Of a stretch of DNA of 20,232 nt, positions 2,032 through 15,515 are shown piece after piece. Source of the stretch: a virus. Lineage: Duplodnaviria > Heunggongvirae > Uroviricota > Caudoviricetes. The position numbers were made by a program, and so were the translations under genes. Each line of letters begins with the position of its first letter. Position 1 is the first letter of the stretch. A model generated the notes under the pieces. That model ran no database searches. It was not told the origin of the DNA and saw nothing but the letters and a program-made list of their open reading frames with translations. The stretch lies in the IMG/VR virus record IMGVR_UViG_2728369554_000020. The stretch is one strand, 5' to 3'.

Positions 2032-2107
2032 TGGAGAGCGGTGGCGGGAATCGAACCCGCATCATCAGCCTGGAAAGCTGAGGTAATAGCCATTATACGA
2101 TACCCGC
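2032..2107 (-). tRNA. tRNA-Gly(UCC)-like element, probably degenerate at the 3' acceptor strand
   Basis: Hand fold of the minus strand: acceptor 5' GCGGGTA, 3-bp D stem, anticodon stem TCAGC/GCTGA with loop TTTCCAG (anticodon UCC), T arm GCGGG-TTCGATT-CCCGC; the following CACCGCTCTCCA does not pair canonically with the 5' acceptor strand. The 5' ~65 nt closely match my recollection of E. coli glyT. Confidence 0.5.
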
Positions 2108-7494: not shown

Positions 7495-7680
7495 TTACTC
7501 CTCAGATTCGTAAGCTGTGAAGACAGCGACCTCCGTCTGGCCGGTTCGGATTCGTACCTCGCAGAGGTCTTTCCTCGTTACCAGNNNNNNNNNNNNNNNN
7601 NNNNNNNNNNNNNNNNNNNNNNNNNNNNNNNNNNNNNNNNNNNNNNNNNNNGCGATTAACATCGCCTTTTGCTGCTTCAT
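7495..7680 (-). CDS. hok: Hok/Gef-family type I toxin, interrupted by a run of N
   Basis: N-terminal MKQQKAMLI and C-terminal LVTRKDLCEVRIRTGQTEVAVFTAYESEE flank the N run and match the Hok family as I recall it; ATG at 7680 with AAGGAG upstream. Confidence 0.6.
   Translation of the reverse strand: MKQQKAMLIXXXXXXXXXXXXXXXXXXXXXXXLVTRKDLCEVRIRTGQTEVAVFTAYESEE
7575..7651. other. run of 77 N (masked or unresolved sequence) inside the hok-like gene
   Basis: Literal n characters at 7575-7651. Confidence 1.
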
Positions 7681-8018
7681 AGCCTGCTTCTCCTTGCCTT
7701 TCGGCACGTAAGAGGCTAACCTACGTTTGTGTAGCATAGATTGGGCCTCAGATTAATGTTAAGCGTCTTGCCGGACGCGTAATGTTAACTGGGGCTTTTC
7801 TCTGTCTGCCTTACAGTGGCATGCCCGAGGCAGACAGCCTCAAGCACCCGCAACAATCTTACCGACACCGATAAGAAAACGCTATTTTTTATTGCCAGAA
7901 CCTTCTGCCCAGGCTAATGTATCCGCGTCAGAACGGCGCAATGCGCTCGCCTGAGATACGTTTACTTGTCATTGGTGGCAACAGATAACGGCAATTGTTG
8001 TTTCTGTTTGTTTCCTTC

Positions 8019-8052: not shown

Positions 8053-8134
8053 TGTTATCCCCAGCGGCAAATCGAATACACCACCAGCGCCACCGCCATT
8101 GCGATTCCTGCCGTTGTAAATGCCTCAGGCCAGG

Positions 8135-9001
8135 TCATCGTAAAACATCCTCCACACCAACCAGTCCGTTCTGCTTCAGATATTCCATCGCCTTATCAGG
8201 TAGATTGCTTGATTTATTGACGCTTTTTAACGAACTGGCTAATCGCTTAACCAACATTGTTAATTCGTTAACCTGTTTTCCGGATGCTTGTGGATTGTCA
8301 GTTTTACCAGAAGTGGCGGTACAGTCGGCGTTCCCACTCTTCTCCTCCTGCGACGGTTTTGCTGCAATCTGACTGGCATGTTTGTTAATGGTAACGATCA
8401 GCTCTTGCTCAGCCTCATCAAGACAATCACTGATACCTCGCCTGTCACCGTCAAAATCATCGAAATCGGCGCGAACCTTGGCAAACTTCAGGATTGCAGA
8501 CAACACCTCACCAGGAATTACCGGAGAGTTGGTTGACGTTTCCGAGATTTTCCGAAAATTATTGGTTGACGAATCCTTGTTTTCCCGAAAGCTTCCTGAC
8601 TGAAGCATGGCTTCGCGGCAATCGTTCCATCCTTCAGCATAATCACTATACGCAAGAGGCCAACCTCTTATGTATTCACGCGGCAACTTATCAGGCACTA
8701 CCAGCGCTGGCGATGCTGCATAAAGTGGTGTTATTTCTGCCCGAAAGTCACCTACTTTATGCAGTCGCACCCACCGTTTGGCTTCTGCTTTGTCAGAATA
8801 CATAGCGGTGAACGTATTATATTCATGGTCAATTTGCGTGAAGGTTGCCTTCCACGCCACCGGCTCAGCTTCCAGCGATGCCAGTGCAATTTTGAATAAC
8901 TCACCCTCTATCCGTGCCATCCCTGAATTGGGGTGACATTTCGTAATCGCTATTTTTAATTTGGCCTCTTCGATTAATTGTTCTTTGGTTAATTCAGCCA
9001 T
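8135..9001 (-). CDS. hypothetical protein (288 aa), uncharacterised
   Basis: Long ORF with ATG at 9001 and an in-frame stop just upstream; own upstream region of 131 bp with two hairpins; followed by the bidirectional terminator. No catalytic motif recognised. Confidence 0.6.
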   Translation of the reverse strand: MAELTKEQLIEEAKLKIAITKCHPNSGMARIEGELFKIALASLEAEPVAWKATFTQIDHEYNTFTAMYSDKAEAKRWVRLHKVGDFRAEITPLYAASPALVVPDKLPREYIRGWPLAYSDYAEGWNDCREAMLQSGSFRENKDSSTNNFRKISETSTNSPVIPGEVLSAILKFAKVRADFDDFDGDRRGISDCLDEAEQELIVTINKHASQIAAKPSQEEKSGNADCTATSGKTDNPQASGKQVNELTMLVKRLASSLKSVNKSSNLPDKAMEYLKQNGLVGVEDVLR

Positions 9002-12939: not shown

Positions 12940-13365
12940 TTAATGCACAGCCAGAGTGTTTCCTGCCGGGCCACCACGATTCATCTGGTTGAAACCAGCA
13001 ATCGCCACTGCGACAAAATCATCAGCGTCTCTCACCAGTCGTTCCCGCGTCTCCACCAGTTCCCGAAACCAGGCTGAACTGTGGCTGCGCATTCGGGCCA
13101 CCAGCAGAGGTGGCATTGCTTTTTCGATCGCTGGTAACAACGCCTGAATTTTTTCAACAGCATCAGGGGTGTCTTTCTCTACCCAGCGGAAAATTTTCTG
13201 GGTATTACGAGCCAGGGCTTCCGGATGGCTGTCGTCATACAGTTCAGGGAACGTCATACCCAATTCGAAATACGCTTTGGTAATTTTCGCAGCCGGTACT
13301 TTTTCGCCGTCCGGATGCGCCCAGGCATTCATCGCCATGCGGATGTGTTCATGCCTGATTTTCAT
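12940..13365 (-). CDS. YdaT-like protein (141 aa) in the cII-equivalent position
   Basis: ATG at 13365 with GGAG 8 nt upstream; N-terminal MKIRHEHI resembles my recollection of Rac YdaT; overlaps the Cro-like gene end. Confidence 0.6.
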   Translation of the reverse strand: MKIRHEHIRMAMNAWAHPDGEKVPAAKITKAYFELGMTFPELYDDSHPEALARNTQKIFRWVEKDTPDAVEKIQALLPAIEKAMPPLLVARMRSHSSAWFRELVETRERLVRDADDFVAVAIAGFNQMNRGGPAGNTLAVH

Positions 13366-13624
13366 GAATCAACTCCGGTTCATCTTGTGTGTTAGCCTTA
13401 CATCCAACAGATAAACCGTCGGTTGGATCCGGGTATAAATCCGGCCGTAATTCATGAGGAGTCACCCCAGTTGCAAGGTAAATTTGACGGACCCGTTCCC
13501 CTGTCGGCACCCGTCCATTGTATTCATTTGCCCATTTGTGTATTTGAGACGGCCAGGCCCCTATCGCGCGCCCTAGTGGGCGAATACCACCGGCAATCTT
13601 TATTGCTTTGTCCAAAGCAGTCAT
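13349..13624 (-). CDS. Cro-like HTH regulator (YdaS/DicC-like)
   Basis: ATG at 13624 with GGAGG 5 nt upstream; 91 aa; divergent from the repressor gene. Confidence 0.65.
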   Translation of the reverse strand: MTALDKAIKIAGGIRPLGRAIGAWPSQIHKWANEYNGRVPTGERVRQIYLATGVTPHELRPDLYPDPTDGLSVGCKANTQDEPELIHENQA

Positions 13625-13654
13625 ACAACCTCCACGTCAATTAAACACAACAAT

Positions 13655-13673
13655 TGTTCACCAAAAAAGAACA
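13655..13673. promoter_or_regulatory. operator-like palindrome TGTTC-N9-GAACA in the repressor/cro intergenic region
   Basis: TGTTC at 13655-13659 and GAACA at 13669-13673; a second partial site GTTCAcTGAAC lies at 13702-13712. Confidence 0.45.
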
Positions 13674-13727
13674 TAAGTCAACACCCTGAGGAATTGTTAG
13701 TGTTCACTGAACGGTTATAATTGCCAA

Positions 13728-14117
13728 ATGGATATGAGAAAAAAGCAATACGACACCCCGCTGGCGGAGAGATTAGATGCGATCTCGCAACAGCATCATT
13801 TAAGCGGTTCAGATTTAGCGCGCATCGCTGGAGTGGGCCGTTCGTCAGTTAATGCCTGGAAAAAGAGAGGGACAATCAGCAAAGATTCCGCGGCCAAAAT
13901 AGCGGAAGCCACAAATGTTTCCCTTTCCTGGCTACTGACGGGAAAGGAGGATACGAGCAGGGAAGTGCTTGATGATGATGAGAAAGCCCTGCTTGACGTT
14001 TACAGAAACCTACCTCCTGTAGAACGCAGAAATATGCTTGCAGCTTTTCAAATGCGACTTCAAAAATTGACTGAATTTTACTCGGAATACGTTGATCCGA
14101 TAACACGTCAAAAATAA
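13728..14117 (+). CDS. prophage repressor (DicA/cI-like, XRE-family HTH)
   Basis: 129 aa; N-terminal HTH (SGSDLARIAGVGRSSVNAWKKRG); no SD; TATAAT at 13716-13721 only 6 nt before the ATG. Confidence 0.8.
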   Translation: MDMRKKQYDTPLAERLDAISQQHHLSGSDLARIAGVGRSSVNAWKKRGTISKDSAAKIAEATNVSLSWLLTGKEDTSREVLDDDEKALLDVYRNLPPVERRNMLAAFQMRLQKLTEFYSEYVDPITRQK

Positions 14118-14137
14118 TTCTTTATTTTACAAAATCA

Positions 14138-14163
14138 TACCGCCGGAAGGCGGTTTTTTTTTA
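14138..14163 (+). terminator. intrinsic terminator after the repressor gene
   Basis: Hairpin ACCGCCGGAAGGCGGT followed by a run of 9 T. Confidence 0.6.
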
Positions 14164-14182
14164 CCTTTATGGATTCATTGTG

Positions 14183-14211
14183 TTGACATATGTTCATCTA
14201 AATAGAACAAT
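14183..14211 (+). promoter_or_regulatory. candidate promoter for the ydfA-dicB-like operon, overlapped by a second TGTTC-N9-GAACA site
   Basis: TTGACA at 14183-14188, 17-nt spacer, AACAAT at 14206-14211; palindrome TGTTC (14191-14195) ... GAACA (14205-14209) lies within the spacer and -10. Confidence 0.4.
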
Positions 14212-14285
14212 GTATTCCATCAAAGCACAGCGGTGCGACAGGTCTTAGTTCCGCTACCCCGGCGTTAAGGGGAAATGAGGTCAAC

Positions 14286-14438
14286 ATGGATACTATCGAT
14301 CTTGGCAACAACGAATCTCTGGTATACGGCGTGTTTCCCAACCAGGACGGCACATTCACCGCGATGACGTATACCAAAAGCAAAACATTTAAAACCGAAG
14401 CTGGCGCGCGTCGCTGGTTAGCCAGAAGCACTGACTGA
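14286..14438 (+). CDS. ydfA: small protein (50 aa), YdfA-like
   Basis: ATG at 14286 with GAGGT upstream; translation MDTIDLGNNESLVYGVFPNQDGTFTAMTYTKSK... resembles my recollection of Qin YdfA. Below the 60-aa cutoff of the ORF track. Confidence 0.55.
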   Translation: MDTIDLGNNESLVYGVFPNQDGTFTAMTYTKSKTFKTEAGARRWLARSTD

Positions 14439-15094: not shown

Positions 15095-15150
15095 TTGATT
15101 TGTACCTTTGGCGGCATCAGTTTCATTGCTGGCTGATGTCCGCCCTTTTT
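15095..15150 (+). ncRNA. dicF: DicF-like sRNA candidate (5' end uncertain)
   Basis: CTTTGGCGGCATCAGTTTCATTGCTGGCTGATGTCCGCCCTTTTT: stem GGCGGCATCAG/CTGATGTCCGCC plus T-run; the core resembles my recollection of K-12 DicF; sits directly upstream of the dicB-like gene as in Qin. Confidence 0.5.
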
Positions 15151-15326
15151 AAAGTGAATTTTGTGATGCGGTGAATGCGGCTAAGCGCACGCGGAACAGT
15201 TAAAAGCGTATTAAAGCATCTGTGTTATGGGTGGATTCTCTGTATCCGGCGTTAATTGTTAACTGGTTAACGTCACCTGGAGGCACCAGGCACCGCATCA
15301 CAAAATTCATTGTTGAGGACGCGATA

Positions 15327-15515
15327 ATGGAAACATTATTACCAAACGTTAATACGTCTGAAGGTTGTTTTGAAATTGGTGTCAGTATCAGTAACCCTGC
15401 ATTTACTGAAGATGCCATTAATAAGAGAAAACACGAACGGGAGTTATTAAATCAAATATGCATTGTTTCAATGCTGGCCCGTTTACGTCTGATGCAAAAA
15501 GGATACTGGCAATGA
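15327..15515 (+). CDS. dicB: cell division inhibitor DicB
   Basis: 62 aa; METLLPNVNTSEGCFEIGVSISNPAFTEDAINKRK... matches my recollection of DicB; GAGGA 8 nt upstream of ATG at 15327. Confidence 0.8.
   Translation: METLLPNVNTSEGCFEIGVSISNPAFTEDAINKRKHERELLNQICIVSMLARLRLMQKGYWQ

Follow-up and report, generated by a model that had tools for sequence, protein, structure and literature searches.

Paired 19-bp palindromes as probable operators of the immunity repressor at the switch and the ydfA-dicB operon of a Qin-like Escherichia coli prophage

[quoted passage not shown] The question is raised by a stretch of 20,232 bp of tailed-phage DNA (the window, in what follows), in which a sequence-only reading had noticed the same TGTTC-N9-GAACA palindrome in the intergenic region between the repressor gene and the divergent cro-like gene and again over the promoter of the downstream operon. 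One repressor was proposed to control both targets, as described for DicA and dicB. Our analysis supports the core of this proposal by the composition of the immunity cassette, the invariance of the half-sites and the covariation of operators with immunity type, while the identification with DicA itself could not be upheld. Most likely the two palindromes are the O_R and O_L operators of one immunity repressor, which would govern both the switch and the ydfA-dicB operon.

The window carries the immunity region of a Qin-like lambdoid E. coli prophage, in a heteroimmune variant. Over this region it is 100% identical to a prophage adjoining potC in E. coli strain R1 and two other cattle isolates. 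At least 80% of the segment 13300-14300 is present in 82 of 5426 complete E. coli genomes, and the repressor cluster was found on more than 1000 contigs. The features discussed below are listed in Table 1.

Table 1. Features of the immunity region and of the two operons flanking it (positions in the window; promoters and operators are predictions)
Feature	Position	Strand	Details
CII-like / YdaT-family gene, second in leftward operon	12940-13365	-	Pfam YdaT_toxin 9.9e-10; PHROG 163 (CII-like activator) 5.5e-45
cro-like gene, 91 aa, YdaS family	13349-13624	-	Pfam YdaS_toxin 6.2e-10; PHROG 35 (transcriptional repressor) 5.5e-23
Leftward promoter, cro-like gene	13653-13681	-	TTGACT (13681-13676), 17-bp spacer, AACAAT (13658-13653); scan 9/12
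Candidate operator O_R	13655-13673	.	TGTTC-N9-GAACA = TGTTCaccaaaaaaGAACA; exact match; covers spacer and -10 of cro promoter
Repressor promoter	13694-13721	+	TTGTTA, 16-bp spacer, TATAAT; scan 10/12
Third, degenerate site	13701-13719	.	perfect left half TGTTCAC, poor right half TTATA; contains GTTCAcTGAAC
Immunity repressor gene, 129 aa	13728-14117	+	Pfam Phage_CI_repr 1.8e-12, HTH_3 2.5e-8
Intrinsic terminator 3' of repressor gene	14139-14163	+	ACCGCCGGAAGGCGGT then T9
Rightward promoter, ydfA-dicF-dicB operon (P_L / dicBp equivalent)	14183-14211	+	TTGACA, 17-bp spacer, AACAAT; scan 10/12
Candidate operator O_L	14191-14209	.	TGTTC-N9-GAACA = TGTTCatctaaataGAACA; exact match; covers spacer and -10 of rightward promoter
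Conserved operon leader	14216-14285	+	homology with heteroimmune prophages resumes here
ydfA-like gene (DUF1391), first in operon	14286-14438	+	Pfam DUF1391 6.6e-29
DicF-like sRNA	15097-15145	+	RF00039 38.7 bits vs gathering score 48, E = 8.8e-7; in block homologous to K-12 dicF
dicB, cell-division inhibitor, kil function	15327-15515	+	Pfam DicB 2.4e-38, full length; annotated dicB in strain R1

That the two sites have identical half-sites and spacing had been claimed from direct reading, and a pattern search of the whole window on both strands agrees, as TGTTC-N9-GAACA has exactly two exact matches there. The mean expectation is 0.03, and none of 100 dinucleotide-preserving shuffles reached two matches. 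When two mismatches were allowed, 10 sites were found and 10.6 were expected, so that this relaxed search is at chance level and only the perfect copies are remarkable. Near the promoters, the only further site within two mismatches was the overlapping sequence TGTTA-N9-GAACG at 13695-13713, which was rejected as an operator because it is not kept in the Lelliottia or Salmonella relatives. In the searchable library, a full-text search found no paper with these operator sequences.

Promoters and transcription starts were predicted by consensus scan, which gave three promoter-like sites in the immunity region and no others. Read along the direction of transcription, the cro promoter and the rightward promoter, both sigma-70-like and near consensus, align as GTGTTGAC-N-TATGTTC-N9-GAACAAT, with the palindrome in the same register in both. 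The downstream palindrome had been described as lying between a TTGACA -35 and the -10. The -35 is indeed found at 14183-14188, but the palindrome is not strictly confined between the two elements: it occupies the 17-bp spacer, and GAACA, its right half, runs into the -10 hexamer AACAAT (14206-14211). A dyad-symmetric sequence is thus common to the promoter of the divergent switch and to the equivalent of the leftward-operon promoter, as in lambdoid operators. There is one full operator per promoter, and the operators are not arranged as tandem triplets.

Both palindromes belong to a cassette that has been exchanged as a unit. An immunity cassette of about 860 bp (approximately 13377-14238) shows no homology to K-12 Qin or phage Tritos, whereas its flanks are 92–94% identical to them, up to 13376 on one side and again from 14239-14247 on the other. 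The Tritos homology stops beside the CII-like gene. The cassette reaches from the cro-like gene through the intergenic region and the repressor gene to the terminator and the palindrome-bearing downstream promoter, so that both palindromes lie inside. This is exactly the set expected if proteins encoded by the cassette read both sites, and it ties the sites to the repressor. The operators are therefore inherited together with the repressor and cro genes and change with the immunity type, again as in lambdoid phages.

For the analysis of conservation, six loci from at least four genera were compared whose repressors are 77–100% identical. Besides the window these were another E. coli allele, about 89% identical at the DNA level, and loci from Lelliottia, Salmonella, Klebsiella aerogenes and one further assembly. 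The half-sites of O_R are invariant in 10 of 10 columns against a noncoding background of 51% (hypergeometric P = 8e-4), those of O_L in 9 of 10 columns (P = 0.012). By comparison, the spacers at O_R and at O_L each have just 4 invariant columns out of 9. Together, the 12 sites yield the consensus TGTTC(A/T)(C/T), a T-rich/A-rich centre and (A/T)GAACA. The GTCAAC and ATTGTT blocks of the leftward cro promoter, as well as the stem and T-run of the terminator, are also invariant in the six loci.

More distant homologues, with repressors 31–74% identical to that of the window, keep the same scaffold, namely divergent genes, a terminator, a TTGACA promoter and a 19-bp element 2–3 nt after the -35. 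These repressors have other recognition helices, and each type has its own, different palindrome, which is common to its two promoters. In detail, the palindrome is TGTTAGC-N5-GCTCACA in locus L013 (14/14 outer positions identical between the promoters), TGTCAG-N7-CTGACA in L029, GTTGA-N7-TCAAC in L030, TTAGC-N5-GCTCAA in L031 and L005, TAAACA-N3-TGTTTA in L011 (14/14) and TGTTAG-N7-CTAACA in the Salmonella group. Over the outer 7+7 positions the mean identity was 11.1/14 within a locus vs 7.0/14 between immunity groups, and the true within-locus pairing was the best of 5040 permutations (P = 2e-4; seven groups, one representative each). The Salmonella loci of the TGTTAG type are the weakest cases, with 8–11/14 positions shared by the downstream and upstream operators, and owing to this mismatch the rule is not perfectly clean.

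The Salmonella-type loci L026, L027 and L032 have TCGAATA or ACAAATA, not CTAACA, as the right half of the downstream operator, and carry an extra TAGCC/TAGCT half-site just 5' of the -35. These sequences suggest a somewhat different O_L layout in the Salmonella-type loci.

In the repressor, an HTH of the Cro/CI type precedes a helical hairpin at the C-terminus. Pfam gives HTH families only, and the S24 (LexA-like) autocleavage domain is lacking. By sequence, the closest solved relative of the HTH is the N-terminal domain of phage 186 CI (2fjr, E = 2.8e-6). The AlphaFold model (pLDDT 82) shows a five-helix HTH domain at residues 11-71 and the hairpin at 83-121; its best full-length analogue in the PDB is SinR (1b0n), a weak match with E = 4.6e-4 and TM 0.40–0.50. 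Distant homologues of the HTH in Pantoea (L016, L017) and Serratia (L015) carry a long LexA/S24-like or other C-terminal domain in place of the short hairpin. The fusion of the HTH to differing C-termini indicates that one DNA-binding module is used in cleavable and non-cleavable repressor formats.

Covariation fits the repressor, the cro-like protein or both as readers of the palindromes, because both proteins are encoded in the cassette and both covary with the operator. It could be imagined that the cro-like YdaS-family protein alone binds them, while the repressor reads another sequence, for instance the GTGTTCACT...GGTTATAAT element or a longer motif. Indeed, the HTH and putative recognition region of the cro-like protein switches with the operator type, reading AWPSQIHKW in the TGTTC loci and KPSSLSKW in the TGTTAG loci, and in K. 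aerogenes L033 a G-to-S substitution beside the repressor's recognition helix leaves the operator unchanged. We nevertheless regard this possibility as unlikely. Repressor and Cro act on common operators in every lambdoid switch that has been characterised, and likewise in Qin (PMC10448788), where DicC ChIP overlaps the DicA site (PMC11430063). In addition, a lysogen must keep dicB off and needs a maintenance repressor at the 14191 site, and the promoter of the repressor gene itself conserves a half-site of identical sequence, TGTTCAC.

The G or S in GV[G/S]RSS beside the recognition helix had itself been considered as a determinant of specificity and was discarded, as L033 has S and yet has TGTTC operators.

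Considerably less probable still is that the two sites are alike only because they descend from one promoter module or arose by its duplication, without any operator function. The likeness of the two promoters does extend beyond the palindrome (to GTGTTGAC, TA and AAT). A promoter, however, needs no dyad symmetry, and in six lineages the spacer has changed between half-sites that have not. Heteroimmune relatives, moreover, keep the promoter scaffold and swap the palindrome at both promoters in step. The least credible source of the sites is a host regulator, LexA or another chromosomal dimeric factor, despite the precedents of YjdC acting on DicA targets and OxyR on Rac (PMC11430063, PMC11879457), since the window has no match to the LexA (SOS) box CTGT-N8-ACAG, from which the palindrome differs in half-sites and spacing, and the operator tracks the cassette within one host species (TGTTAG-type in E. 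coli Qin, TGTTC-type in this prophage), which would not be expected of a host factor.

The preferred reading is thus that both 19-bp palindromes are very probably operators of a prophage repressor in the style of Qin/DicA, silencing the cro-like gene and the dicB operon. From the sequence comparisons we infer the following scheme. A dimer of the 129-aa HTH repressor would bind each 19-bp site. Because the operators fill the spacer and overlap the -10, the bound repressor would exclude RNA polymerase both from the leftward promoter of the cro-like, CII-like and replication genes, the last of which are found farther along that operon, and from the rightward promoter driving ydfA, the DicF-like sRNA and dicB. 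Probably the cro-like YdaS-family protein acts at these sites as well, giving a bistable switch. The repressor promoter has only the half-site TGTTCAC, suggesting that it would be occupied weakly or at high repressor levels, in the manner of autoregulation. Since the repressor has no self-cleaving peptidase domain, an antirepressor or some other signal would be required to lift repression, as with DicA and Rem.

The repressor's own promoter contains the sequence GTTCAcTGAAC (13702-13712), which had been taken for a related palindromic site. It exists as written, but it is not a conserved palindrome: its right arm TGAAC reads TGCGA, TGAGA, TGAGT and TACGA in four TGTTC-type loci outside E. coli, and GTTCAcTGAAC was accordingly dropped as a palindromic site. 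What is conserved is the left half-site TGTTCAC and its register to the repressor's own -10, and the blocks GTGTTCACT and GGTTATAATTGC around the site are invariant in the TGTTC-type loci. A 19-mer counted from TGTTC (13701) has its last base at position 4 of TATAAT, the register of the full operators. At this place the heteroimmune relatives have a good copy of their own operator, e.g. TGTTAGCCGGTGGCTTATA (TGTTAGC-CGGTG-GCTTATA) in L013 and TTAGCC-AGT-GGCTTA in L005. The best reading of these sequences is that 13701-13719 is a degenerate operator whose right half is dictated by the -10, suggesting a weakly occupied, autoregulatory site.

The repressor ATG (13728) follows the -10 TATAAT by 6 nt, and all relatives examined share this distance, including those whose protein has a shorter or longer N-terminus. 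The constancy of the distance suggests that the repressor mRNA is probably leaderless, and it favours the start at 13728 over that at 13734.

The claim that the rightward promoter feeds ydfA, dicF-like and dicB genes is supported by the Pfam matches to DUF1391 and DicB and by the DicF-like RNA. The latter is a sub-threshold match only, as the Rfam gathering score is not reached. A small ORF lies between the ydfA-like gene and this RNA. Just upstream of dicB there is also a sub-threshold match to STnc100 (15157-15304; 38.2 vs 47 bits).

The leader of this operon is kept across heteroimmune prophages of E. coli, Salmonella, Enterobacter and Cronobacter, with the conserved blocks ATCAAAGCACA..GGTGCGACAGGT..GTTCCGC..CCCGGCGTTAAGGG, and from 14247 on it is 93.6% identical to the K-12 Qin ydfA leader. 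RNAalifold gave just two 4-bp hairpins with little covariation, and an Rfam search of the immunity region and of the conserved leader returned nothing meaningful. A kinship with HK022 P_L/putL was rejected, as only chance words of 7–10 nt are shared. Possibly the leader is a nut- or put-like element.

The closest known system is Qin. There, the site bound by DicA is Oc (TTGTTAGTCATAACTAACAA), an inverted repeat of 20 bp that lies between dicC and dicA; DicA represses dicC and dicBp and activates its own gene, while two further operators predicted from sequence showed no DicA binding in vivo (PMC3441716). [quoted passage not shown] The likeness to DicA and dicB that had been proposed for the window holds for the gene layout. 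Here as in Qin, cro-like and repressor genes are divergent, the repressor is short (129 aa here, 135 aa in DicA) and consists of an HTH and a helical C-terminus without cleavage domain, and a terminator is followed by a promoter that has the operator in its spacer and -10 and feeds ydfA...dicF...dicB. K-12 dicBp, TTGACC-gata-TGTTAGTCATGGCTAATCT, has the same architecture as 14183-14211, and the downstream operon is homologous, with 86–94% DNA identity from 14247 on.

The likeness does not extend to the regulators and their site. The repressor is a distant homologue of DicA and not its orthologue (25% identity over 110 aa, E = 2e-6, aligning over the HTH and the C-terminal LPxxE...helix region), and the YdaS-family cro-like protein gave no significant alignment with K-12 DicC. 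The operator is the 19-bp TGTTC-N9-GAACA here and the 20-bp TTGTTAG-N6-CTAACAA in Oc (PMC3441716), that is, the outer pentamers are 9 bp apart here vs 8 in Oc, and the half-site is TGTTC vs TGTTAG. The repressor promoter is near-consensus here (TTGTTA-16-TATAAT), whereas the dicA promoter has been described as not obvious (PMC3441716). Finally, no homologue of Rem was found in the window by BLASTP or tBLASTN. As repressor, cro-like protein and operator sequence and spacing all differ, the window is not the DicA system itself.

Like lambda, P22 and 434, the window has the same operator at both early promoters, overlapping the contacts of RNA polymerase, and its operators are exchanged jointly with the repressor in one immunity cassette. 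The probably leaderless repressor mRNA likewise resembles lambda cI transcribed from P_RM. For lambda and for Qin, three operators per side had been proposed from sequence. In contrast to the three tandem sites of the lambda, P22 and 434 type, one full operator per promoter plus one half-site is present here; the repressor has no S24 domain, and no N gene follows P_L. The racR-ydaS-ydaT region of Rac is comparable insofar as the leftward operon starts with YdaS-family and YdaT-family (CII-like) proteins (PMC11879457), but RacR is not the repressor here, and both the operators and the dicB operon downstream follow the Qin type. In its HTH and helical hairpin the AlphaFold model of the repressor resembles SinR of B. 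subtilis, although the resemblance in structure is weak and the sequences are related in the HTH only. The helical hook of SinR serves in oligomerisation and is also the part through which the antirepressor SinI captures the protein. A parallel with SinR in antirepressor control is, on the basis of the model, only a lead.

In concept, the arrangement goes nowhere beyond the known paradigm of Qin and lambda and is an ordinary lambdoid design. If the proposed scheme is correct, it would account for the silencing of the dicB/DicF inhibitors in this widespread E. coli prophage type, and would assign a specific 19-bp operator to a repressor that databases annotate just as a helix-turn-helix protein or, mistakenly, as DicA. 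The graded set of related repressors with differing operators on one promoter scaffold could serve to work out rules of HTH-DNA recognition and to obtain orthogonal repressor/operator parts.

A wider reading joins these observations, and we put it forward as speculative. The operator specificities, at least seven, might form a natural allelic series on one scaffold (TTGACA, 2 nt and a 19-bp operator ending in the -10) that is used three times per phage, and the short SinR-like repressor might in addition bridge O_R and O_L via its C-terminal hairpin. The centres of O_R and O_L are 536 bp apart (about 51 helical turns). If such a loop formed, it would replace the tandem cooperative operators of lambda.

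Some features outside the immunity region may be added. The R1 prophage contains an IS66-family element (ISEc8; L001 6967-9279) that is absent from the window (at about 8100-9000); this difference was deduced from the coordinate offsets of the tRNA gene and the immunity region, the prophages being otherwise identical. The tRNA gene (2037-2107, minus strand, 41.4 bits) lies in the late/Q region and is a tRNA-Gly by the annotation of strain R1. A sok antisense RNA (116 bits) adjoins a hokD-type toxin gene (7675-7849 and about 7495-7650, both on the minus strand), and the two form a type I toxin-antitoxin pair inside the prophage.
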